In this document: in pieces, positions 133 through 39,496 of the stretch | Layout: each line of letters starts with the position of its first letter | How positions within the stretch are numbered: the first letter of the stretch is position 1 | Assembly: GCA_034434015.1 (NCBI GenBank) | Contig: DAOUAB010000059.1 | Location: forward strand, 26,971 to 90,970 | Source: Anaerolineales bacterium | GTDB taxonomy: Bacteria > Chloroflexota > Anaerolineae > Anaerolineales > UBA6663 | DNA: 64,000 nucleotides | Reading direction: 5' to 3' | Position numbers and translations under genes: made by a program | Notes under the pieces: model-generated | What the model saw: the letters and a program-made list of their open reading frames with translations, nothing else | What the model was told of the DNA's origin: nothing | The model's database searches: none

Positions 133-1134
133 CTATATCTCAATCGGTTTCTTAAGCGTCTCCAGCAGAAGGCTCACCACGCCCTCCACATCCGTCAGGT
201 CCACCATCTCCGACGGCGTGTGCAGGTAGCGGGTGGGGATGGAGACGCAGCCGGCCGGCATGCCGCCGCGCGCGATCTGCATAGCGGCGGCGTCGGTGGT
301 GCCGGCCTCCAGAATCTCGAGCTGGTACGCCAGGCCGGCCTCGCGCGCGCGCTGGACCAGCAAGTCTTTGACGCGCGGGTCGGCCAGCATGCCGGAATCG
401 CGCACCTTGATGGCCGGGCCGCCGCCCAGGCCCACCGCCATCTTCAGGCCGTTGGGCGTGTCGCCGGTGCGGGTGACGTCCACCGCCAGGCCGAGGTCGG
501 CCTCTACGCCGAAGGCCGCCGTGCCGGCGCCGCGCAGGCCGACCTCCTCCTGCACGCTGAAGACGAAGGCCACCTCGTGCGGCGTGCTCTTGAGTGCGCG
601 CATGACCTCGATCAGGATCGCGACGCCGATCCGGTCGTCCAGGCTCTTGGCCACCAGGCGGTGCTCGCCGACCTCCTCCATGGGCCGGAAAAAGCCGGCC
701 ACGTCGCCGACCTTCACCGGGCAATCGGCCTTGCTGGCTGCGCCGAAATCGATGAACAACTCGGACAGCGTCGGGGGCCGGGACGGGTCCTCGCGCCGGG
801 CGTCCATGCCGATGACGCCGGTGACGCCGCTGGCGAAACGCACGCGGCCGCCGAGGCAGGTCAGCGGGCTGACGCCGCCCAGGTTGGTGAAGCGCGCGAA
901 CCCCCCGTCGTCGATGTGCGAGACGATCACGCCGATCTCATCCAGGTGGGCGGAGAGCATCACCTTGCGCCCGGATTTGGATTTCTTCTTGATCACGGCG
1001 ATCAGGTTGCCCAGCGGATCGACCGAGATGTAATCGGGCAGGTTGCGGATCTCCGCGCGCACCAGCTCGCGCACCTGGCCCTCATGGCCGGACGGGCCGT
1101 AGGCTTCGGCGAGTTTCTTGATGAGAGGCTTCAT
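133..1134 (-). CDS. M42 family aminopeptidase (TET/FrvX-like), paralog 1
   Basis: Motifs SAHLDEIG, LDDRIG, VQEEVGLRGA, AVDVT, YLHTPSE. Confidence 0.9.
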   Translation of the reverse strand: MKPLIKKLAEAYGPSGHEGQVRELVRAEIRNLPDYISVDPLGNLIAVIKKKSKSGRKVMLSAHLDEIGVIVSHIDDGGFARFTNLGGVSPLTCLGGRVRFASGVTGVIGMDARREDPSRPPTLSELFIDFGAASKADCPVKVGDVAGFFRPMEEVGEHRLVAKSLDDRIGVAILIEVMRALKSTPHEVAFVFSVQEEVGLRGAGTAAFGVEADLGLAVDVTRTGDTPNGLKMAVGLGGGPAIKVRDSGMLADPRVKDLLVQRAREAGLAYQLEILEAGTTDAAAMQIARGGMPAGCVSIPTRYLHTPSEMVDLTDVEGVVSLLLETLKKPIEI

Positions 1135-1215
1135 GTCGCTTCGCTCCAGTGCTCAAGGCACAAATTCCAAGGCCCAAGGCTCCCTGGCGTATTGCGCCCT
1201 GCGCCTTTGGCGTTC

Positions 1216-1824
1216 TCACGGCGCCAGCCGCGTGATGGTCCAGCTCTCGCCGGCGCGCCGGTACAGCAGCCGGTCGTGCAGGCGCTGCGGGCGCTCCTGC
1301 CAGAACTCCACCTCGTCCGGCACCAGCCGGTAGCCGCCCCAGTAGGCGGGGCGGGGCACCGCTTGGCCCGCGTACTTGGCCTGGAGCTGCAGGAAGCGCG
1401 CCTCCAGCTCGGCGCGGTCGGCGAGCGGCCGGCTCTGCGGCGAGGCCCAGGCGCTCAACTGAGCGTCCAGCGGGCGGGAATGGAAATAGGCGTCGGATTC
1501 GGCGGCGCTGACGCGCTCCACGCGTCCGGCCGCGCGCACCTGGCGCGCGAGCGCGGGCCACAGGAAGACCAGCGCCGCGCGCGGGTTCTCGTCCAGCTCG
1601 CGCGCCTTGCGGCTTTCGTAGTTGGTGAAGAACACAAAGCCGCGCGCGTCGAACTCTTTCATCAACACCACGCGGGCCGACGGCGCGCCGTCCCGGGCCG
1701 CGGTCGCCAGCGTCATGGCGTTGGGTTCGTCCAGGCCGGCGGCCACGGCGTCCGTGAACCAGCGCGCGAACTGCGTGATGGGGTCGGCGCTGACGACGGT
1801 TTCGGACAGTTCTGGCTGAGACAT
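1216..1824 (-). CDS. pdxH: Pyridoxamine 5'-phosphate oxidase
   Basis: PNAMTLAT, ARVVLMK, FFTNYESRKA, YFHSRP, WGGYRLVP-EFWQ-RLHDR. Confidence 0.95.
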   Translation of the reverse strand: MSQPELSETVVSADPITQFARWFTDAVAAGLDEPNAMTLATAARDGAPSARVVLMKEFDARGFVFFTNYESRKARELDENPRAALVFLWPALARQVRAAGRVERVSAAESDAYFHSRPLDAQLSAWASPQSRPLADRAELEARFLQLQAKYAGQAVPRPAYWGGYRLVPDEVEFWQERPQRLHDRLLYRRAGESWTITRLAP

Positions 1825-1865
1825 GCGTCAACGAGCCGGCGCCCCGAGGCCGCGGCGCCGCGGCG

Positions 1866-3035
1866 TCAGCCCTTCCACACCCTGGCGCTCCAGCCCTCCA
1901 GCGCGCGTTGCAGCAGCGCCGCCGTCGCCCGCCAGTCGCTGAGCCGGGCGACGGCCGCCGGGCCGTGCAGATAGCGGCCGGGGACGGAGACGGAGACGCT
2001 GGGCACGCCGGCGCGCGCGCGGTGGATGGCGCCGGCGTCGGTGCCGCCGCCGCCCGGCTGGCGGAACTGGTAAGGCAGGCCGGCGGCCTCGGCCGTGCGC
2101 TGCAAATGCTGGATCAGGCGCTGATCGGAGAGGGTCGCCCGGTCGGCCAGATAGATGGCCGGCCCCAGGCCCAGCCGGGTGTTGTACTCCACGTTCTCGC
2201 GCTCGGCGAAGGAAGGCGGCAGGTCGTAAGCGGGCGTGCAATCCAGCGCGAAGGCGGCGGCCGGGTCAATGGCGTACGCCGCGACCCGGGCGCCGCGCAG
2301 ACCGACCTCCTCCTGGACCGTGAACGCGGCGTGCAGCTCGCACGGGTACGGGCCGCCGCGCAGCAATTCCACCAGCGTCGCGCAGCCCAGCCGGTCGTCG
2401 AGGGCCTTGCCGACCAGGGAGCCGGCGAAACCGCCGCCCGCGCCGACGACGGTCAGCTCGGACGCGAAGGTGCCGCGTTCGCCGACCTTGACCAGCTTCT
2501 TGGCGGCCTCAGCCGTCTCGGCGCCCACGTCGATGCGCAGCGCATTCGCCTTGACCACGCTGTTCCGCCGCTCGTGGTTGAGCAGATGGACCGGCGCCGC
2601 GCCGATCACGCCCGGCACCCGGTTGGGGCCGACGACCACGGGCTTGCCGATCAGGAGGCGGTCGTCCACCCCGCCGACCACCTCGAAGCGTAGCGTGCCG
2701 TCGGACTCGTGCCCGCTGACCATGAAGCCGATCTCGTCCATGTGCGCGGCCACCATCACCCGGTCGTGACGGCCGCCGTTGCGGGCGGCGGCTTTCTTTA
2801 CGGCCAGGACGTTCCCCAGGGCGTCCACCTTCACCGCCTCGACGTGCGGGCGGATGGCCTCCAGGATCAGCCTGCGCACGGCGCCCTCGTCGCCTGAGAC
2901 GGCCACGGCGTCGGCGAGTTTTTTGAGGAACTCGACCTCCGGCGCGGCGGCTGCGGCGGCGCCGCCCGGGGCCGCTTTGGGCTGGGCCGGCGGGCGGGCT
3001 TTGGCGGGAGCCGGTTGGGCGGGTTTCTTGGCCAT
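1866..3035 (-). CDS. M42 family aminopeptidase, paralog 2 (start trimmed to MAKKPAQ at 3035)
   Basis: AAHMDEIGF, LDDRLG, VQEEVGLRGA, GGGTDAG, YLHGP; start abuts the upstream stop at 3037. Confidence 0.9.
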   Translation of the reverse strand: MAKKPAQPAPAKARPPAQPKAAPGGAAAAAAPEVEFLKKLADAVAVSGDEGAVRRLILEAIRPHVEAVKVDALGNVLAVKKAAARNGGRHDRVMVAAHMDEIGFMVSGHESDGTLRFEVVGGVDDRLLIGKPVVVGPNRVPGVIGAAPVHLLNHERRNSVVKANALRIDVGAETAEAAKKLVKVGERGTFASELTVVGAGGGFAGSLVGKALDDRLGCATLVELLRGGPYPCELHAAFTVQEEVGLRGARVAAYAIDPAAAFALDCTPAYDLPPSFAERENVEYNTRLGLGPAIYLADRATLSDQRLIQHLQRTAEAAGLPYQFRQPGGGGTDAGAIHRARAGVPSVSVSVPGRYLHGPAAVARLSDWRATAALLQRALEGWSARVWKG

Positions 3036-3036
3036 A

Positions 3037-4095
3037 TCAGTCCAGGACCAGGGTGCTGACGTAATCCGGCGCCAGGCCGCTGATGAACTCCGCCAGCAGG
3101 CGCCCGGCGCGCTGGACATCCTTGACGGCGACGATCTCGACCGGGGTGTGCATGTTGCGCAACGGCAGGCTGACGACCATCGTCGGCACGCCCTCGCGCG
3201 CCACCTGCACGCCGAACGCGTCGGTTCCGGAGTGCAGGGCCATGGCCTCCACACTGTGCGGCATCTCCAGGCGTTCGGCCGCGGCCTTCAAGCCGGCGTG
3301 CAATTTCGGGTGGATGTTGGGGCCGAGGCCCAGCGTCGGACCGCCGCCCAGGCTGTACGTGCGGTCGGCGAACTCCTTGGTCGCGGCGCCCGCGCCGTAG
3401 GTCGCGTCGATGGCGATGGCGAGCTGCGGCTCCAGGGCGAAGGCGGCGGCGATCGCGCCGCGCAGGCCGACCTCCTCCTGCACGGTCGCCACCGCGATCA
3501 CGTCCCAGGCGTGCGGCCGGGTCTGCAGATCGTCCAGGCAGGCGGTGACGGCGGCCACCGAGGCGCGGTTGTCCAGCCGGTTGGCGACCAGCAGGCCGCC
3601 CGGCAGCTCGCGCGGCGGCTGGGCCACCGAGATGACGTCGCCGACGCGCACCTGCGCGGCCACCTGATCCGCCGGCAGGCCCAGGTCAACCAGCAGTTCC
3701 TCCACCGGCACCACGCCCTCGCGGCTCGCGCGCGGCAGCAGGAAGGCCGGCGGCTGCGCCACCACGCCCGGCAGGTCGGCGCGGCCGTGGACGGTGACCG
3801 GCTGGCCGGGCATCACGCGCGCGTCGATGCCGCCGATGGCCGCGACGCGCAGGAACTCGCCCTCGATCTGCGTCACCATCAGGCCGATGGCGTCCATGTG
3901 GGCGGCGAGCATGAGCCGGGGCCGAGGCGCGGGCCCGGTCCCGCGTCGGACGGCCCATAACGAGCCGAGCCGGTCGACGTGGAGCTCGTGGGTCAGCGGC
4001 GCCCAGGCGGCGCGAATCAGGTCGCGGACGCGGCCTTCATAGCCGGAGACGCCCGGCGCCGCGCACAGGTCTTTAAGATGGGCCAGGAGGTCCAT
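3037..4095 (-). CDS. M42 family aminopeptidase, paralog 3
   Basis: AAHMDAIG, LDNRAS, VQEEVGLRGA, SGTDA, NMHTPVE. Confidence 0.9.
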   Translation of the reverse strand: MDLLAHLKDLCAAPGVSGYEGRVRDLIRAAWAPLTHELHVDRLGSLWAVRRGTGPAPRPRLMLAAHMDAIGLMVTQIEGEFLRVAAIGGIDARVMPGQPVTVHGRADLPGVVAQPPAFLLPRASREGVVPVEELLVDLGLPADQVAAQVRVGDVISVAQPPRELPGGLLVANRLDNRASVAAVTACLDDLQTRPHAWDVIAVATVQEEVGLRGAIAAAFALEPQLAIAIDATYGAGAATKEFADRTYSLGGGPTLGLGPNIHPKLHAGLKAAAERLEMPHSVEAMALHSGTDAFGVQVAREGVPTMVVSLPLRNMHTPVEIVAVKDVQRAGRLLAEFISGLAPDYVSTLVLD

Positions 4096-8672: not shown

Positions 8673-9302
8673 TCAATCGAGATGCACGATCCCGCGCTTG
8701 AGCGCCTCGGTCACCGCTTGCGTGCGGTCGGTCACGCCCAGTTTGCCCAGCAGGTTGTTGACGTGGATCTTCACCGTGCCTTCGGCGATGCCCAGGGCTG
8801 CGCCGATCTCTTTGTTGCTCCGGCCGGCCACGATGAGTTTCAGCACCTCGAGCTCGCGGGGGGTCAGGGCCTCGGCCGTCAGCCGGACGGCCAGTTTGGC
8901 GGCCACCTCGGCGGGGATGCGCTTCTGGCCGGCGTGCACGGCGCGGATCGCCTCGAGCAATTCATCGCGGGGCGTGTCCTTGAGCAGGTAAGCTTCGGCC
9001 CCGGCCTGGAGCGCGCGGTAGATGTCCTCGTCGCCGTCGTAGGTGGTGAGGACGATGATGCGGGCCGCGGGCCGCGCGGCCCGAATGTGCGTGATGGCCT
9101 CCACGCCGCCCATCTCCGGCATCCGCAAATCCATCAGGATCACGTCCGGCTTGAGCTGACGGGCCAGTTCCACGGCGCGTCGGCCGTCCTCGGCCTCGGC
9201 GGCGACTTGCATGTCCGCGCGGCGGGCGATCATCGCGGCCAGGCCCTCGCGCACCACGGCATGGTCGTCGGCGATCAGGATGCGGATGAGCGATTCAGGC
9301 AT
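8673..9302 (-). CDS. NarL/LuxR-family response regulator
   Basis: ADDHAVVREG, DVILMDLRMP, YLLKD, LTPRELEVL..SNKEIG..EGTVKIHV. Confidence 0.95.
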   Translation of the reverse strand: MPESLIRILIADDHAVVREGLAAMIARRADMQVAAEAEDGRRAVELARQLKPDVILMDLRMPEMGGVEAITHIRAARPAARIIVLTTYDGDEDIYRALQAGAEAYLLKDTPRDELLEAIRAVHAGQKRIPAEVAAKLAVRLTAEALTPRELEVLKLIVAGRSNKEIGAALGIAEGTVKIHVNNLLGKLGVTDRTQAVTEALKRGIVHLD

Positions 9303-11169
9303 GGGTCGGGATGCGGCATCTGACAGTCGTTCCGCCCGCTGGCGCGCTGGTCACGATCAATTCGCCGCCATGTTGGGCGGCGCGCTCGCGCATGCCCACC
9401 AGGCCGAAGCCGCCCGGCGCGCCAGGGCGGAGGCGCTGCGGATCGAAGCCGCGTCCATTATCGCTGACTTCCATTTCAACGGCGTCCGGCCGGGCGCGCA
9501 AGGCGACGCGCAGGCGCGTGGCGCCGGCGTGCCGGAGGGCGTTGATCACGGCCTCCTGCCCGAGGCGCAGCAGATCAGCCTCCAGACCGGGCGAGAGCGC
9601 TGGCCATTGCTCGGGCCACTGCCATTCCACCGAGAGCGGCGCATCGGTCGTCAGGGCTGTGATCGAATCGCGCAGGGCGCTGGGCAGGGGCTTGCGTTCG
9701 AGCGGCTGTGGGCGCAGGGCATACACCGAGCGGCGCGCTTCGGCCAGACTCTCGCGCGCCAGGTCGCGGGCGCGGGTGAGATGCCGGTTCACGTCGCCCC
9801 CCGGCTCGCCCAGCGCATCCTCAGCGGCCTCGAGTTGGATGACGATGCCGGTGAACCCCTGCGCCAGGGTGTCATGGATTTCGCGCGCCATGCGGTTGCG
9901 CTCCTCCAGCAGGGCCGCCTTTTGATTCTGCTCGGCCAACCGGGTGAGCTGCATGGCGAGGGTCACCTGCTGTGCCAGGGCCTGCGCCAGCTCAATCTCG
10001 TCGACGCTGAAGCGGCGGCGGGTGAGGCAGTTGACGCTAAAGTGGCCGAGCACTTCGGCGCCGAGCAGGAGCGGCACGATCAAAATCGTCTGGAGGCCCT
10101 GCGCCAGGAGCCGTGCGCGCTGCTTCAGGCGCGGATCGTTGGCGACGTCTTCCACCACAAGCGGGCGGCGCGTACTGAGCAGCTCATTCCAGACGGCCAG
10201 GTCGGCGGGCAGCGAGCGCGGGGCGTCATCGCCCAGGTCGGCGGCGCTCATCACCCGGCCGTCGAGATAGGCCAGGTGCAACCTCACCTCGCCCTGCTGG
10301 CCATCGTGCAGGAACAGGCTCACGGAAGGCGCGTCGAGCTGCGCGGCGATGGCCGAGAGAGCCTGTTGGAGGATGCGGTCGAGCGAGGTCTCCGGCGTGA
10401 GCGCATTCAGGGTGTGGGCCAGCGCCAGCGTCTGCCCGCGCGACACTTGCAGGGCGCGCTCCAGAGAGCGCGCGGATAGCCAGCTCAGCCACGCGCCCGC
10501 CGCGTACACGCTCCACCAGAACAAAACCAGCCCCAGGCCCTGCGCGGGCGTGCCCACGGGATACACGGGCGTCCAGCGCCCCGTCTGCTCGCTGAGGGTG
10601 AATAACGCGGTGAGGATCGAGATGGCCATCAGCGACCCGAAGAAGCCGTTGGATCCCAGCACCAGACCGCTGATGAGAATGCCGAGCAGATAGAGCGCGT
10701 TGACCGGGCTGTTCATCCCATAGAACTGCGCATTGAAGGCGACGGGCAGAAAGATGCCGCTCATGAGGCAGCTGGCGGCCCAGAATGACCGGCCGCGCCG
10801 GAGCAGTATCTCGGCCAGGCCGCACAGGGCCAGCAGGCCAACGCCGTCCCACGGGAAGAGCAGATTGAAGGGCACGCCCGCCCACCCGGCGAGCAGGTAG
10901 AGTGTCGCGCCAAGGGCGGTGAGGGCAAGCGCCCAGCGCAGCAGGCGGGCGTTGACGCCGGGCAGGGACGACGTCATGGGAGGCCGCTCGCGCCAAAAGC
11001 GCCATCCGACGGCGGCCAGGCCGCCGGCCACCACGCCCAACGCCAGCCCGACCACCCAGTCGCTGTTCACCCAGCGGCTGAGCGCGACGCCGGCCGCGCC
11101 GCCCAGTGCGGTGCCCGCGCTCCAGGCGACGATGAACTTCCAGGAATAGGGCGTGCGGGAAGCGTGCAT
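9295..11169 (-). CDS. Membrane sensor histidine kinase (multi-TM, GAF, HisKA_3, HATPase)
   Basis: ERNRMAREIHDTLAQGF, QEAVINALRHA, DNGRGFDP, GFGLVGMRERA. Confidence 0.92.
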   Translation of the reverse strand: MHASRTPYSWKFIVAWSAGTALGGAAGVALSRWVNSDWVVGLALGVVAGGLAAVGWRFWRERPPMTSSLPGVNARLLRWALALTALGATLYLLAGWAGVPFNLLFPWDGVGLLALCGLAEILLRRGRSFWAASCLMSGIFLPVAFNAQFYGMNSPVNALYLLGILISGLVLGSNGFFGSLMAISILTALFTLSEQTGRWTPVYPVGTPAQGLGLVLFWWSVYAAGAWLSWLSARSLERALQVSRGQTLALAHTLNALTPETSLDRILQQALSAIAAQLDAPSVSLFLHDGQQGEVRLHLAYLDGRVMSAADLGDDAPRSLPADLAVWNELLSTRRPLVVEDVANDPRLKQRARLLAQGLQTILIVPLLLGAEVLGHFSVNCLTRRRFSVDEIELAQALAQQVTLAMQLTRLAEQNQKAALLEERNRMAREIHDTLAQGFTGIVIQLEAAEDALGEPGGDVNRHLTRARDLARESLAEARRSVYALRPQPLERKPLPSALRDSITALTTDAPLSVEWQWPEQWPALSPGLEADLLRLGQEAVINALRHAGATRLRVALRARPDAVEMEVSDNGRGFDPQRLRPGAPGGFGLVGMRERAAQHGGELIVTSAPAGGTTVRCRIPTHA

Positions 11170-11252
11170 GGCGAGACGGTGTCTGATGCGTGAGCAACCT
11201 CAGGATAGCAGAAGCCGATGCCGGGCGGAGTGAACCTAAGCCAGAGCGGCCA

Positions 11253-11270
11253 CTATAACTGAGGTTATAC
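11253..11270. promoter_or_regulatory. Palindrome upstream of the two-component operon, candidate autoregulatory box
   Basis: c-tataac-tgag-gttata-c, perfect 6-bp arms. Confidence 0.5.
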
Positions 11271-11289
11271 CTCACCGCGTGGGTAATCT

Positions 11290-11526
11290 CAAATGTCCTG
11301 GAACGGCGCAGTTTCCTGGCGAGGCCTCGTATTCGCCGCCCGCATACAGGGCGCAGCCGCTGGCCGCTTTCAGGCCTTCGTGAGCGTCACAGGTGACCAA
11401 TTGCTCCGCTGCGTCGTGCGCTTGTGCTTCCCGACGCCAATCTTCTGCGCCGCTTCCAACTCGATCAGCGCCTGCGCCAGCTACTGCAGTGCCTGGCGCA
11501 GGAAGCCCCGTCCAGCGTCAGGCATC
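11290..11526 (-). pseudogene. Degenerate, internally deleted IS256-family transposase remnant
   Basis: GFLRQALQ*LAQALIELEAAQKIG..KHKRT (IS256 N-terminus-like) joined out of frame to QLVTCDAHEGLKAA (IS256 DDE-region motif). Confidence 0.65.
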
Positions 11527-11621
11527 CAGGCAGGCCGGTGACTCTCAACCGGCTGAGCCGGTGGCCTACTGCCCGGGCATCGTCAGTGCAACCGGGAAGG
11601 GAAAGCGCTTGGGACAAAGCA

Positions 11622-11662
11622 AACAGGCGGCGGACTCCATGAATTGAAGTCCGCCGCCTGTT
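11622..11662 (-). terminator. Terminator of the hmgS-thiolase-DUF35 operon
   Basis: 15-bp perfect stem aacaggcggcggact/agtccgccgcctgtt. Confidence 0.7.
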
Positions 11663-11683
11663 GCCCAACAGATGGTATGGCGT

Positions 11684-12085
11684 TCAGTTGGTGGTCAAAA
11701 CAGGCCTGAATTTGTAACCGTACACCAGCATCCCGCGTTCCCCGTCTTCACGGAGTTTGCGCGTGACCATCTCCACCGGCGTGCCGATGGAGACCTGGCC
11801 ATTCTCGACGTCGGTCAACTGGGCCGTGACCAAAGGGCCCTCTTCAAGCTTGACCAGGGCAACCGTGTAAGGGACGTTGCTCTCGTATCCCTCCGGCGCG
11901 TCATAAACTGTCGTGTAGGAGAAGACCTCACCTCGCCCGGTAAAGACATAAGGAGTCTTGGCCTCACCCGCGCAGTTCGGACAGACGTCACGCGGCGGGA
12001 AGATTTTCACCTCACAATGCGGACAAACCTCTCCAACAAGACCATACCTTTGCTGCTGAAGCCGCCAGTGGCGCGAGATTTCCAT
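11684..12085 (-). CDS. DUF35 Zn-ribbon/OB-fold protein (thiolase-HMG-CoA synthase scaffold type)
   Basis: CPHC..FPPR-VCPNC zinc ribbon; YTTVY..PYTVALVKLEEGPLVTAQL; YGYKF. Confidence 0.92.
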   Translation of the reverse strand: MEISRHWRLQQQRYGLVGEVCPHCEVKIFPPRDVCPNCAGEAKTPYVFTGRGEVFSYTTVYDAPEGYESNVPYTVALVKLEEGPLVTAQLTDVENGQVSIGTPVEMVTRKLREDGERGMLVYGYKFRPVLTTN

Positions 12086-12182
12086 AAAGCTCTCCTTCTG
12101 AATTACCTGCGGGGAATGCTATCTCGATTGCGCTATCAGAAACTATCGGAGAGGCTTTCTAGGGCTATCACTTTGCTTATAG

Positions 12183-13331
12183 TCAATCTACTCTCTCGAA
12201 AATATGCGTAACTACCGTAGATCCTGCACCGCCGATTGATTGAGACATTCCATAACGAGCGCCCTTAACCTGATTTGGACCGGCCTCGCCTCTGAGTTGT
12301 AGGACGGTCTCGGCCACCTGATAAACGCCCGTCGCCCCGCCCGGGTTGCCGCGCGCTTTCAAGCCCCCAAAGGTCGAGATCGGCACTCTTCCATTTATGG
12401 AAATTTCGTTGTCGGCGGCCAGCTTCCAGCCGAGTCCCGGTTCGGCGAATCCGGCCGCTTCCAGGCTGAGCGCGCTGAAGATCGTGAAGGCGTCATATAG
12501 CTCGAACACCTGGATCTGGTTGGGCGTGATGCCTGACGTGCCATACGCCTTGGCGGCCGAAAAACGGGCGGCTTCAAACACCAGCGGGTCCGGACGGTCG
12601 TGGACGGCCAGGGTGTCGGTGGCCATCGTCGAGGCCGCGATGCGGATGGCGGGGTGATCGGGGGTGGGCCGGGACGTGACCAGCAGCGCCGCCGCGCCGT
12701 CGCATTCCGGGGCCGTGTCGAACATGTTGATCGGGTCGGCTACCACGCCGGCCTTGACGAAGGCCTCGGCGGTGAGGGCGTTGCGGAACATCGCGTTCGG
12801 GTTCGACCTGGCGTTGGCGTGCGCGTTGACGCTGAAGTTGGCGAAATCCTTCAACGCGACGCCGTGCGCGTGCATGTAGCGGCGCATGAGCAGGGCCGCC
12901 AGGGCGGTCGGCGTGGCGCCCTGGGCGCTTTCCCAGTCGCTGTCGGCGGAGGTGGCCATCGCGGCGGCCACACCCGGCCCGACCTTGTCCGTCATCTTCT
13001 CGACGCCGACCACGAGCGCGGACTCGGCGGCGCCGGCGGCCACGGCCAGGTACGCCTGGCGCAGCGCCGCGGCGCCCGAGGCGCCGGCCGCCTCGACCGA
13101 GACGGCCTCGATGCCGCGCAGCCCGGCGAAATCGGCGACGAGCGCGCCCAGGTGGGCCTGATGGCTGAGCGGGCCGCCGAGCATGTTGGCCACAAACAGG
13201 GCCTCCGGGTTTGGCCGGGGCGCGTCCCGGGCGACGGCCTCGATGGCGTAGAAGGCCAGCTCGCGCAGCGATTTGTCCCAGTGTTCACCGGCCGGGGTCA
13301 GCCCCACGCCGGCGATAAAAACGTCGCGCAT
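12183..13331 (-). CDS. Archaeal/SCP-x-type thiolase-fold protein lacking canonical catalytic residues
   Basis: MRDVFIAGVG, GVEKM, DGAAA, GGLKARG-PGGATG, GEAGPNQV; EAAGASG instead of EAACASG. Confidence 0.88.
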   Translation of the reverse strand: MRDVFIAGVGLTPAGEHWDKSLRELAFYAIEAVARDAPRPNPEALFVANMLGGPLSHQAHLGALVADFAGLRGIEAVSVEAAGASGAAALRQAYLAVAAGAAESALVVGVEKMTDKVGPGVAAAMATSADSDWESAQGATPTALAALLMRRYMHAHGVALKDFANFSVNAHANARSNPNAMFRNALTAEAFVKAGVVADPINMFDTAPECDGAAALLVTSRPTPDHPAIRIAASTMATDTLAVHDRPDPLVFEAARFSAAKAYGTSGITPNQIQVFELYDAFTIFSALSLEAAGFAEPGLGWKLAADNEISINGRVPISTFGGLKARGNPGGATGVYQVAETVLQLRGEAGPNQVKGARYGMSQSIGGAGSTVVTHIFERVD

Positions 13332-13336
13332 CGTGT

Positions 13337-14527
13337 TCACTCCGCCAGATTGTCGGCCAGGGCCTGCGCCAGCGCGCGGGCCAGGGCCAGGTTGTCGGCC
13401 AGGGCGGCCTGCCGATCGGCCTCCGCCGAGAGCGGCGGCGACTGCAATTGCACCGTGGCCACGTAGCGGCCGACGACGAAGCTGATCTCGGTGACGGCGA
13501 TGGACGCGCCGTCGGCGCTGGTCATCACCTGGCTCCACGCCCGGCTGCTTTCACCCACGCTCGGCGGGGACGAGAGCTCCGCGGCGCCCGGCAGACCGAT
13601 CATGGCCCGCAGACCGCGCGGCGCCGCCGAGGCCTGGCGGTAGGCTGAGATCTGCTGGAACAACGCCGAGCCCGCCACCTGGTCGAACTCCTCCGCGTTC
13701 ACGGGCTTCACCATGTAAAGCTGATAGCCGGCGATCCGGCCGAGCTGGTTGAGGGTGGCGCGGGCGCCCTCGCTGAAATCGGAATTCAAGGTCCAACCGC
13801 CGAGATACTGGTCGCTGATGATCCAGCGTTCGCCCAGGGCCGGGTCCAGGGCCGCAAGCTGCGTCTGGCCGAGGAGCCGGGCGCGCAGGTCCGGCAGACC
13901 CGCCTTCAGCAGGTCGCGCAGGGCGGCGGGTTCGGCGCCGGCCTTGAGTTTGTCCGCCACCCGCTGCGCGTAGCGCAGCGGCTCGTCCGGACCGGGCAGG
14001 ACGTCGGCGGACCCGAACATCGTCACCGAGCCGACGGCGTTCCGGTAGCGGAAGTCCACCCGATACAGGCCCTGGTCCACGTCGATGTCCGGCGGCGTGT
14101 AGCGCCACACCTGGCTCTGCTCGCCGACGGCCGACGCATCCACGCGCTCCCAATCGGCGCCCGGGCTCTCGATGTCCATGCCGGCCTGGGCGTCGGCGAC
14201 GGTGCGATAGAGCAGGATCTGCAGCGTGAAATCCACATAGTCCGAGTCTTCCGGCGGCGTGTAGCGGGCCGTGTACAACTGTTCAACGTTGTGCAGGCTG
14301 CCGGCCGGGACCGTGTCGGTGACGACCGGCGCGGCCGGGTCAACGTCCGGCGGCCGGGACAGATCCACGGCGGTCTGCAGGGTCTGGTCGGTCAACGCCC
14401 AGCCGGCCGGCAGGTCGGCGGTGGTCAACTGGTAATCCCAGGCGTCGCCCAGCACCAGCGCGGGGGCCGGCGCGGCGCAGCCGGCCAGGACGAACAGGCA
14501 GAAAACAAGCAGGAGGTTTCGTTTCAT
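13337..14527 (-). CDS. Lipoprotein with two tandem PknH-like extracellular repeats
   Basis: MKR + hydrophobic stretch + LAGC lipobox; two similar halves (..VGEQSQVW..FRYRNAVGSV / ..VGESSRAW..FVVGRYVATV). Confidence 0.7.
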   Translation of the reverse strand: MKRNLLLVFCLFVLAGCAAPAPALVLGDAWDYQLTTADLPAGWALTDQTLQTAVDLSRPPDVDPAAPVVTDTVPAGSLHNVEQLYTARYTPPEDSDYVDFTLQILLYRTVADAQAGMDIESPGADWERVDASAVGEQSQVWRYTPPDIDVDQGLYRVDFRYRNAVGSVTMFGSADVLPGPDEPLRYAQRVADKLKAGAEPAALRDLLKAGLPDLRARLLGQTQLAALDPALGERWIISDQYLGGWTLNSDFSEGARATLNQLGRIAGYQLYMVKPVNAEEFDQVAGSALFQQISAYRQASAAPRGLRAMIGLPGAAELSSPPSVGESSRAWSQVMTSADGASIAVTEISFVVGRYVATVQLQSPPLSAEADRQAALADNLALARALAQALADNLAE

Positions 14528-14610
14528 ACGCAGGCGCAATGAGATTGCGCGGCGGGGGCGTGAAGCGCTGTCCGCGCCTGGCGCGCCGCCGCGCGGCGAG
14601 AGAGGCGGGG

Positions 14611-15684
14611 TTATTTCATCACCAGCTTGCCGCGCAGCCGCGCGTACACGGCGTAGTCGATCTCGGTCCGGCGGGCGATGTAGTCGCGCGTCTGCGGGGC
14701 GCGGGCGCGCGCCGCGGTGATCCGGTCCGTGACCTGCAGGCCGAAGGCGTCGGAGCCGGCGCCTGAGCCGAAGGAGACCAGCAGCACGCGGTCCCCGGGC
14801 TGGGCCTCGTCCAGCACGGCCGTCAACCCGATCATGGCGCTGCCGGCGTAGGTATTGCCGATCTCGCCGACCAGCAGCCCGGTCTTGATCTGCTCGTCTT
14901 TGAAGCCGAGGGTCTTGGCCGCCTTCTGCGGGAACTTGACGTTGGGCTGGTGCAGGACCACGTACCTGTAGTCGCCCGGTTGCGTGCCGGCCAGCTCCAT
15001 GTACCGGCTGGCGGCGGTGGTGATGTGCTTGAAGTAGGCCGGCTCGCCCGTGAAGCGCTGGCCGTGCTCCGGGTACTTCTCATATTGCCGGCGCCAGAAA
15101 TCGGGCGTGTCGGTGACGAACGAGTACGAGCCGTCGAAGACCGCCAGCGCCTCGTCGGCCGGGCCGAGCAGATAAGCGGCGCCGCCCGCGCCGGCCGTGT
15201 ACTCCAGCGCGTCGCCGGGCCGGCCCTGGGCGGTGTCCATGCCGATGGCCAGGGCGTAATCGGCCATGCCCGAGCCGACAAAGCCAATGCCGGCCTGCAT
15301 GGCCTCGGTGCCGGCCTTGCACGCGAATTGCCAGTCGGCGGCCTGGGTGTTGGGCACCGCGCCGATAGCCTCAGCGACGATGGTCGCTGTGGGCTTGACG
15401 GCGTACGGATGGCTTTCGCTGCCCACCCAGACCGCGCGGATGCGGCTCGGATCAATCCCGGCCCGCTTCAGGGCGTTGCGGGCCGCCTCGATGGACATGG
15501 TCGCCACATCCTCGTCCAGGCCCGGCACGGCCTTTTCCTTGATGGGCAGGGCGCTCGTCCCCTCCGTCCAGACGCGCGCCACTTCTCTGGCCGGCAGCCG
15601 GTAGCGGGGAACATAGGCCCCATAGCCAACGATGCCGACCGGCCGGGCCGGGCGCATTAGTTTTGGCGCATGATCGTGGTCCAT
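14611..15684 (-). CDS. mvaS: Hydroxymethylglutaryl-CoA synthase, archaeal type
   Basis: [33 protein letters not shown] (catalytic Cys), [20 protein letters not shown]. Confidence 0.92.
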
Positions 15685-15755
15685 TATGAAAACTCCCTCG
15701 GTGACAACAGAGTGAATTTTATCATCAGCGGCCTGGCAAAAGCTCTCAGGAGCGA

Positions 15756-16877
15756 TCACTCGAATTGTAACCGGCCGCCCAGCAGGGCTTGCGGTTTCCA
15801 GGGCCGGGCGCGGTCGCTGGACCAGGGGGCCGGCGGCGCGCTGACCAGGGTGCACAGCGCCAGGAGGGTGGCGTCGTAGTTCACGCGCCAGCCGGCGAAG
15901 TCGGACCAGGCCTGGTCCAGGTCCGGCTTGAGCGGCAGGCCGGCGGCGCGCAGACGTTCCACCGCGTCGTCGAACTCGGCGCGCGTGAGGCTGATGGGCT
16001 GGGCCGGGAAATGTGGATCGGGGTGATAGGGGAGGCCGAAGAAATCGCAAATGTGGCGCAGGGCCAGGTAGCCGGCGCGGATGCACAAAGCAGCCTGCGG
16101 GTTCGGCGGGTGGCCCAGCGTGGATTGGTACAATGCAGCGGCATCCAGGATCGCGCCGGCCGCCGTGATCCAGGAGTGATGCGGCTGAGGCGAGCGGAAG
16201 AAGGCCAGCACCGGCAGGGAAGTGTGCGTCTCGTCCAGTTGCGAGAACCAGATCTCCCACTCGCGCCACAGGTCGTTGAAGTGGTCCATGCGGCCGAGCG
16301 GGAAGGCCAGTTCGAACATATACACAGCCGAGGGCGGCGAGCCTGCCCGCGTCTCCAGCAGGTTGACAAGCGTCTCGCGCGCGGAGAAAGCCGAGTAGAT
16401 GGTGGGCAGGTAAGAGATGAGCAGGGCGGCCAGCGTCATGCCGAACGCAGCCTCGGAGAAGGACAGCGCCGCGATCAGCGGAGTCTGGGTGGGCGGGACG
16501 AAGCCGAGCGTCAGCAAGGTGGAGCCGCTCTCCAGGAAAGCGTCAAAGAAAGGCCGGACGCCCAGCGCCCAGAAGAGGCACGCGTAGCCCAGGCACACCA
16601 GCGTCAGCAGCGCCATGGGCAGGACGAGCAGGCTGACGGGCGCGTACATGGCCAGCGCCGCGTCCTGGGCCGCAAAGGACCGCGCTCGTTTCACCCGCAG
16701 ATGAAACGCCAGGCGCACCGCCCGGAAGATAGAGCGCGTGATCCGGTCCGGCGCCGAGCGTGGCAGCACGAAGGTCCGCAGGGCGGAGACCACGGCGCTG
16801 TAGATCAGCCAGACGCCAAGGCCGACCGCCAGGGCGCGCAGAGCGAGGTCGAGGGGGGTGAGGGGCGCATTGGTCAT
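15756..16877 (-). CDS. Membrane protein with an ion-channel-like pore segment
   Basis: TM helices flanking [13 protein letters not shown], followed by a soluble C-terminal domain ([14 protein letters not shown]). Confidence 0.6.
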
Positions 16878-17020
16878 GACGGAACTTAAGGTAAGATGGG
16901 CGGGGTCCAGGAGTGACTATACCGCCCCTGGCGGTTTTCGTCCCCTGCCGGAAACGGCAGCCTGGTTGCCCGCCTGGACAACGCCGTTGGCCGATGGGAA
17001 CCATAGCTCTGCCCACGGAT

Positions 17021-37543: not shown

Positions 37544-39496
<1,953 letters not shown>

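Follow-up and report, generated by a model that had tools for sequence, protein, structure and literature searches.

The locus analysed here lies on the minus strand of a 64-kb stretch of DNA (64,000 nucleotides of contig DAOUAB010000059.1 from an Anaerolineales bacterium, referred to as the window) and forms a four-gene unit in the order archaeal-type HMG-CoA synthase (HMGCS), a lipoprotein-like insert, a thiolase-fold protein (termed THL in the following) and a DUF35 protein. This account concerns THL, a candidate pseudo-enzyme whose catalytic positions are replaced. The features of the locus and the replaced positions are outlined in Table 1.

Table 1. Operon features and replaced active-site positions of THL, in window coordinates.
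Feature	Coordinates	Strand	Remarks
THL, 382-aa archaeal/SCP2-type thiolase-fold protein	12183..13331	(-)	Pfam Thiolase_C_1 1.1e-42 and Thiolase_N
Ends of the THL open reading frame	ATG 13329-13331, TGA 12183-12185	(-)	
HMGCS, archaeal-type HMG-CoA synthase	14611..15684	(-)	alternative start ATG at 15657
Lipoprotein-like open reading frame, 396 aa, signal peptide ending LAGC	13337..14527	(-)	between HMGCS and THL
DUF35, zinc ribbon and OB fold protein, last gene of the operon	11684..12085	(-)	Pfam OB_ChsH2_C 8.3e-21 and zf-ChsH2
THL-DUF35 spacer, 97 nt, low GC	12086..12182	(-)	four GATAG repeats, GGAG ribosome-binding site
Intrinsic-terminator-like hairpin, 18-bp stem followed by T-rich tail	11622..11662	(-)	closes the operon after DUF35
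Gly83, codon GGC	13083..13085	(-)	position of the acyl-accepting Cys (CxS motif); EAACASG to EAAGASG
Tyr279, codon TAT	12495..12497	(-)	position of the His of HDxF; (V)HDAF/HDCF to LYDAF
Asn329, codon AAC	12345..12347	(-)	position of the His of GHP; GHP/GHA to GNP
Ser365, codon TCA	12237..12239	(-)	in place of the C-terminal N(I/V)GG-loop Asn, invariant in active relatives

THL was aligned end to end with the thiolase of Pyrococcus furiosus (7yvy, E 3.5e-102) and with the thiolase of the Methanothermococcus thermolithotrophicus complex (6esq_A, E 3.3e-72); weak matches to 5m3k_C and 9skm_I were obtained as well (2.5e-20 to 4.7e-24). Both end-to-end alignments confirmed the three replacements on which an earlier prediction made for this gene (the original prediction) was built, namely EAAGASG, YDAF and GNP. 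A fourth active-site replacement, which it had not listed, is Ser365. Furthermore, Ala207 occupies the position of a Ser that is invariant in active relatives. We take the loop around Asn365 to be the counterpart of the loop that bears the second catalytic Cys in classical thiolases, and Ser207 presumably corresponds to their pantetheine-contacting Ser. With respect to the NCBIfam models, THL remained below the cut-offs of both the subfamily model NF004720 (400 vs 420 bits) and the equivalog model NF053570 (347 vs 600 bits); the JGI label for proteins of this type is acetyl-CoA C-acetyltransferase. CxS, HDxF and GHx are described as the motifs by which the archaeal thiolase subunit (ACAT) is defined (PMC12960953), in agreement with the residues named in the original prediction. 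The same paper states that the exchange H284A within HDxF abolishes HMG-CoA formation in the archaeal complex and that H294Y nearly abolishes thiolysis in PfACAT, a Pseudomonas homologue (PMC12960953). As the acetyl-Cys intermediate is impossible and both His as well as the Asn are missing, THL is very probably not a thiolase. Judged from its sequence, it is by descent a member of the archaeal ACAT clade in which every catalytic hallmark of the clade has been lost.

The partners of THL show no such losses at their own sites. HMGCS scored far above the NCBIfam cut-offs of NF003274 (552 bits) and TIGR00748 (544 bits), and in the alignment with 6esq_I (E 1.1e-132) equivalents of the complete E82/C114/H238/N270 tetrad were present. 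The earlier statement that a neighbouring HMGCS keeps its catalytic residues therefore holds with regard to the residues but not to the position, since the lipoprotein-like gene separates it from THL. For DUF35 the best PDB match was the DUF35 protein of the archaeal complex (6esq_E, 7.7e-33, compared to 2e-10 for the DUF35 of ChsH2), and all four zinc-ribbon Cys were found. The lipoprotein-like open reading frame begins MKRNLLLVFCLFVLAGC, has no match in Pfam or NCBIfam and is confined to the 8 closest relatives. Its stop codon is located 5 nt ahead of the ATG of THL, suggesting translational coupling of the two genes. An exported lipoprotein-like product encoded inside a cytosolic mevalonate operon is an oddity.

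No RNA element was matched in an Rfam scan of positions 11000-17000, spacer included, and no sigma-70-like promoter was found. The GC content at third codon positions (GC3) drops from ~0.95 to ~0.6 over the final 90 codons of THL and the initial 60 codons of DUF35 (about 11900-12500). A compositional split as a sign of recombination was considered and rejected; the dip spans the 3' end of one gene and the 5' end of the next and recurs in the relatives L003 and L006. The synonymous divergence of DUF35 (dS 1.9-3.0) is far above that of the neighbouring genes. Downstream of DUF35, genes for a GAF/HisKA_3 histidine kinase (9295-11169) and a LuxR-type response regulator (8673-9302) are located on the same strand. 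In several distant relatives a GAF/HisKA_3 kinase gene lies upstream of the gene for HMG-CoA reductase (L054, 5606-7318; L083, 4013-5701), and altogether this kinase family was seen in 7 loci, which hints at a dedicated regulation.

A scan of a genome collection yielded 80 loci, all from Chloroflexota metagenome-assembled genomes (MAGs) except for two probably misassigned bins. The scan finds exact 8-mers only (e.g. GVEKMTDK), so that divergent THL copies lacking them escape. Three groups were distinguished. Group A1 (33 loci, two of them Logan contigs of the window organism) contains the HMGCS-thiolase-DUF35 operon with a thiolase lacking the Cys; its Cys site is mostly Gly, also Asp, Asn, Ser or Ala, and the second His is usually replaced by Asn, in some cases by Phe, Asp or Glu, while in a single locus (L050) the Cys alone is lost. 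Group A2 (9 loci, including Candidatus Roseilinea and Thermoflexales) shares this operon and has an intact C/H/H thiolase. In group B (40 loci) the thiolase is intact (EAACGSG/HDAFS/GHPVGA) and stands alone, with no HMGCS within 10 kb. Thus, a Cys-less copy was found in 33 of the 42 loci with an HMGCS-thiolase operon. The E/C/H/N tetrad of HMGCS was intact in 41 of 41 operons and the Cys4 site of DUF35 in 37 of 39 loci. HMG-CoA reductase is encoded directly upstream of HMGCS in 16 A1 loci and on the long contigs L083, L085 and L086, identifying the operon as a part of the upper mevalonate pathway; it is absent from the 64-kb window. In a neighbour-joining tree the intact A2 thiolases were nested inside the Cys-less operon lineages. 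This suggests that the Cys may have been lost more than once, a result that is uncertain given the long branches and the use of neighbour joining only. As a separate observation, stand-alone DUF35 genes on several Anaerolineales contigs abut and slightly overlap paired large serine-recombinase genes (L067, 1362-5110; L088, 7529-11237; L089, 7501-11209), followed in L088 and L089 by a small helix-turn-helix gene, a ParA-like gene and short open reading frames. This arrangement looks like an integrative element inserting at the 3' end of DUF35.

The replacements in THL are shared by its close homologues. Among the 120 closest database proteins (62-100% identity; where named, from Anaerolineales or Chloroflexi MAGs) position 83 was Gly in 119 cases and Asn in one, position 329 was Asn in all 120, and position 279 was His in 77, Tyr in 23 and Phe in 20. 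The expectation that the losses would recur in Chloroflexota homologues was borne out by this alignment. A wider range was observed for the Cys-less operon copies, in which the Cys site is occupied by G/D/N/S/A (Cys in 0/32), position 329 is Asn in 28 of 32, and position 279 alternates between H/Y/F/W/N/S across orthologues, with Asp also occurring among the deeper ones. The free variation of the Cys site argues against a catalytic role at this position.

Most of the conserved framework is maintained. The reference consisted of 89 positions that show no variation in A2, B and the two archaeal thiolases; in A1, 58 of them are kept at a frequency of at least 90%, 21 partly, and 10 are lost (C83, H279, H329, N365, S207, F141, L252, L203, T122 and A128). 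An AlphaFold2 model of THL (pLDDT 90.4, pTM 0.92) superimposed on 6esq_A with a TMq of 0.96 and a root mean square deviation of 1.8 Å, and on 7yvy with a TMq of 0.88-0.90, in line with a five-layer thiolase fold of the SCP2/archaeal type. Fold and most of the invariant framework are thus kept, and it is specifically the chemistry-bearing residues that have been released from selection. The ratios of nonsynonymous to synonymous substitution rates (dN/dS), obtained for 8-9 relatives, were 0.13-0.21 for THL, 0.08-0.17 for HMGCS, 0.02-0.06 for DUF35 and 0.3-0.57 for the lipoprotein-like gene. The ratio of dN between thiolase and HMGCS was 1.94 in the clade of the window compared to 0.79 in A2, and the corresponding ratio of protein distances was 1.48 vs 0.76 where the operon thiolase is intact; the median pairwise identity was 0.57 for A1 vs 0.83 for both A2 and B. 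THL evolves about twofold faster than expected, under a constraint that is relaxed yet still strong. The 120-homologue survey and the dN/dS values corroborate the claim of the original prediction that the substitutions are a lineage trait, which is old and maintained by purifying selection, but its own argument, that they fall in both compositional halves of the gene, is weak, as the GC3 dip continues into DUF35.

Cys-less thiolases are not restricted to group A1. We collected 122 near-full-length representatives (at least 340 aa) of 50%-identity clusters related to THL, of which 57 have the C/H/H triad; many others carry D/S/G/E/P/Q/N/A/T at the Cys site. Gln was found in one distant cluster (P0126), likewise located between HMGCS and DUF35, and a variant with Thr is a stand-alone gene. 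In a Thermoplasmata MAG (GCA_031961725.1; locus L094, 3454-7559) an intact HMGCS and a DUF35 protein accompany a thiolase with a Cys-to-Ser exchange in which both His are kept (ESASASG). Divergently upstream, this locus contains an intact acetoacetyl-CoA thiolase of the classical bacterial type, which matches 4wyr at 411 bits and has equivalents of Cys89, His348 and Cys378; it is accompanied by a 3-hydroxyacyl-CoA dehydrogenase.

With respect to an intact thiolase in Anaerolineae, no classical thiolase was detected by tblastn within 10 kb of any of the loci examined in this class. The DUF35 protein of one B-type locus was used as a lead to the NCBI assembly GCA_016715195.1. Its contig JADKBB010000062.1 encodes HMGCS, an esterase and an inactive THL copy (EAAGASG/YHDAFS/GFPGGA), with DUF35 6 kb further, and on contig JADKBB010000009.1 the intact B-type thiolase MBK8822464.1 is found (EAACGSG/HDAFS/GHPVGA), whose accession lies 2,402 apart from that of the DUF35 protein MBK8824866.1 of the same assembly. 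At least one Anaerolineales MAG thus contains an inactive operon copy as well as an intact stand-alone paralogue, and the mutual exclusivity of the two that the 80 loci had seemed to display (0 shared) was rejected. This apparent exclusivity is an artefact, because the scan matches exact 8-mers that divergent THL copies lack. Further cases were sought via neighbouring NCBI accessions and assembly look-ups, and no additional co-occurrence was found by this route. The B-type paralogue is unusually uniform, with a median pairwise identity of 0.83 over 40 genomes with GC contents of 0.44-0.63, and among its top 120 database clusters the identity to the query never falls below 89%. Its conserved neighbourhood comprises genes for an aminotransferase, a GNAT protein, a PilZ protein and two PlsC-like acyltransferases, and contains no mevalonate genes. 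The original prediction had foreseen neither this separate paralogue nor the spread of G/D/N/S/A/Q at the nucleophile site nor the variability of the Tyr of YDAF. An intact candidate for the second, active thiolase that it had proposed to look for exists in GCA_016715195.1; none was found in the window.

Taken together, we favour, with a probability of roughly 0.6, the interpretation that THL is a pseudo-enzyme which descended from the acetoacetyl-CoA thiolase subunit of an archaeal-type thiolase/HMG-CoA synthase/DUF35 complex and now serves as a structural or CoA-site partner of HMGCS and DUF35, acetoacetyl-CoA being supplied by another thiolase. Having lost the ability to form the acyl-cysteine intermediate, THL would be retained and translated from one operon with HMGCS and DUF35 since HMGCS, itself active, would continue to depend on a partner of the thiolase fold. 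By assembling with DUF35, THL would complete the interfacial (fused) chamber in which CoA is bound, whereas acetoacetyl-CoA would be made by a different, intact thiolase encoded elsewhere in the genome and then be taken up at the HMGCS site. The stand-alone archaeal-type paralogue could be that supplier in at least one related Anaerolineales genome. A precedent is provided by PhlA and MucA, which are inactive HMGCS-like subunits retained in HMGS/ACAT/DUF35 complexes. Without these inactive HMGS-like units, the active subunit fails to work (PMC12960953). The fixed place between HMGCS and DUF35, the complex-forming fold and this precedent point to a non-catalytic structural subunit. The formation of the complex, the structural or CoA-site role of THL and the source of acetoacetyl-CoA in the window organism are inferred.

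Several observations weigh against this interpretation. In the window, tblastn with archaeal-type and classical thiolases found nothing beyond THL, and the coexistence of inactive and intact copies appears in one MAG and is subject to the usual caveat of binning. The inactivation of the thiolase removes channelling, the accepted rationale of the archaeal complex, so that the remaining advantage of the complex is unclear. Furthermore, the strong conservation of the GNPGGA loop including Asn329 would be compatible with some residual or novel chemistry. Finally, Ser207 is replaced by Ala in 28 of 32 copies, and the thiolase-side half of the CoA chamber could therefore also be degenerating.

The presence of THL and an intact paralogue in one MAG as well as the unusual conservation of the stand-alone paralogue would also agree with a half-active heteromer, in which THL and the intact paralogue assemble as a heterodimer or within the dodecamer in a KS-CLF-like manner. 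THL would then provide the contacts to DUF35 and HMGCS and the paralogue the chemistry, and channelling would be preserved. Weaker support comes from 10 positions common to THL and the intact operon thiolases at which the B-type protein differs (including M181, F182, R230 and D245), which might fit divided contact surfaces. However, the neighbourhood of the paralogue is devoid of mevalonate genes, and its co-occurrence with THL is known from one related MAG, not from the high-GC clade of the window. We consider such a heteromer rather unlikely.

A change of function is in our view improbable. In this case THL would catalyze another acyl-CoA reaction that proceeds without covalent intermediate (retro-aldol/aldol cleavage or malonyl-CoA decarboxylation), in analogy to Ltp2, Sal and the trypanosomal SCP2-thiolase-like protein. 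The idea arises from the YDAF motif of the window protein, which resembles the Y-D-x-F/Y that replaces H-D-x-F in the aldolases: in TcLtp2 (Y294DHF) and CtSal (Y302DCY) this residue acts as the catalytic base, and the motif of TbSLP reads YDCF (PMC12329534). Moreover, Ltp2- and Sal-type proteins also work with DUF35 domains, the fold of the THL model matches 6ok1, 9myr and 5ab4-7 at TM values of 0.82-0.88, and the conserved GNPGGA loop would suit an enzyme. Nevertheless, an Ltp2-like aldolase deduced from YDAF was rejected, as the Tyr swaps with Phe and His in orthologues. Tyr279 is Phe in close orthologues, where no base is possible, and His, Trp, Asn, Ser or Asp in deeper ones. At the x position of YDxF, Ala or Ser is found compared to His or Cys in the aldolases, the nucleophile site varies freely, and the free-standing DUF35 is of the archaeal-complex type, as its PDB matches show. 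Finally, the genes alongside encode an intact HMGCS and, in relatives, HMG-CoA reductase, with no hydratase among them.

It is very improbable that THL is still a thiolase that makes use of an unconventional nucleophile or acid/base. The original prediction had pointed to the Cys of TAPECDG as a possible substitute, and this Cys210 indeed lies near the active-site region of the window protein, but just 8 of the 32 orthologues have it (otherwise Ala in 19, Gly in 4 and Val in one) and is Ala or Gly in intact relatives. As no column of the Cys-less family alignment contains Cys in more than 50% of the sequences, another Cys as nucleophile was rejected; both catalytic His and the equivalent of Asn365 are gone as well. 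Gene decay and errors of sequencing or assembly, for which an in-frame stop in dnaK of the window could be quoted as a sign of an imperfect assembly or genome, can practically be dismissed. The THL open reading frame is intact, 7 contigs obtained in independent runs encode exactly this protein, hundreds of orthologues share the substitutions and dN/dS is about 0.13-0.21; private sequencing errors, as envisaged earlier, do not account for replacements common to the 120 closest homologues.

The stop in dnaK is a TAG at 38876-38878 (minus strand; gene about 37544-39493) inside the conserved (Y/F)DLGGGTFD motif of a hrcA-grpE-dnaK-dnaJ-prmA cluster. This stop, which differs from a Tyr codon by a single base, splits the gene into open reading frames of 205 and 430 aa; a sequencing error, loss of the gene's function or translational read-through might account for it. 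Near the start of the window (133-4095, minus strand) three successive genes for M42-family aminopeptidases are located (133-1134, 1866-3254 and 3037-4095), with a pyridoxamine-phosphate oxidase gene among them. The second and third reading frames as listed overlap by ~200 nt, so that one start codon has probably been over-extended.

Returning to THL as a pseudo-subunit, the pattern may be more general. Tentatively, and with less than even odds, archaeal-type HMGCS could be structurally dependent on a thiolase-fold partner and DUF35, and this partner would fossilise as an obligate pseudo-subunit, repeatedly, once another thiolase takes over. If true, this would have happened in several Anaerolineae lineages (G/D/N/S/A/Q at the Cys site) and in a Thermoplasmata lineage (Ser, with the classical thiolase adjoining). 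Channelling of the intermediate would then be dispensable and the architecture of the complex would not; alternatively, the intact paralogue might dock onto the pseudo-subunit and thereby restore channelling. The locus can be regarded as a natural experiment on the archaeal complex, asking whether it is the body of the thiolase and not its catalysis that HMGCS depends on, and whether the first step, thermodynamically unfavourable as it is, really requires channelling. Anaerolineae are abundant in sludge, sediments and aquifers, and owing to the acetyl-CoA C-acetyltransferase label, pathway reconstructions for this class credit the thiolase step to a protein that is almost certainly unable to perform it. 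For engineering purposes, archaeal-type HMGCS may need a thiolase-fold partner in new hosts even if acetoacetyl-CoA is provided by another enzyme.

Among known systems, the archaeal thiolase/HMGCS/DUF35 complex offers the closest sequence relatives of all three products (3.3e-72, 1.1e-132 and 7.7e-33 for THL, HMGCS and DUF35, respectively). The thiolase fold (TMq 0.96) and the clustering of the genes are shared, and in the relatives a linkage to HMG-CoA reductase is added. The THL subunit differs in that the Cys, the two His and the NxGG-loop Asn are missing, so that it can neither carry out the first reaction nor channel acetoacetyl-CoA, and the clade of the window has the extra lipoprotein gene in the operon. 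A more distant parallel is KS-CLF (KSalpha/KSbeta) of type II polyketide synthases, where a Cys-less paralogue of the thiolase superfamily is the obligate partner of the catalytic subunit. CLF comes from another branch of the superfamily, and its Cys site is occupied by a conserved Gln with decarboxylase function, whereas the Cys site of THL is variable and mostly Gly, with Gln in P0126 only.

Ltp2-ChsH2(DUF35), Sal-Shy(DUF35) and the T. brucei SCP2-thiolase-like protein share with THL an SCP2/archaeal-type fold that does not carry out the thiolase reaction and a Tyr in place of the His of HDxF, and Ltp2 and Sal also the association with a DUF35 domain (PMC12329534). In these aldolases the Tyr is catalytic and conserved, and so is a further residue, namely Tyr344 of Ltp2 and Cys304 of Sal (PMC12329534). 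In THL the Tyr alternates with Phe and His and the second residue is not present, the equivalent of Tyr344 being not directly aligned. Moreover, the partner of the aldolases is a MaoC hydratase with fused DUF35 in steroid degradation, compared to HMGCS and a free DUF35 here.

Literature searches for a pseudo-thiolase in mevalonate operons or in Anaerolineae yielded no description, and in the accessible portions of a 2026 survey of 1,030 bacterial HMGS/ACAT/DUF35 loci, inactive HMGS units are the only inactive ones discussed (PMC12960953). The systems covered there, PhlABC (PpATase), MucABC (SmaATase) and the P. fluorescens ACAT/HMGS-DUF35, have in common with the present operon the tripartite HMGS/ACAT/DUF35 ancestry and the retention of an inactive thiolase-fold subunit (PMC12960953). 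In PhlABC and MucABC the HMGS-like subunit is inactive and the ACAT-like subunit keeps its Cys (Cys88/Cys87), whereas here HMGCS is intact and ACAT inactive; judged against PhlC and MucB, THL has no Cys and its partner HMGCS an intact tetrad. The former belong to clusters of secondary metabolism, in contrast to the primary mevalonate metabolism of the present operon with HMG-CoA reductase adjoining in relatives. The reversed arrangement with respect to PhlABC, which the original prediction had drawn as an analogy, thus fits the literature. The operon would represent the mirror image of PhlABC and MucABC, indicating that either catalytic subunit of such a complex can lose its activity and still be retained.

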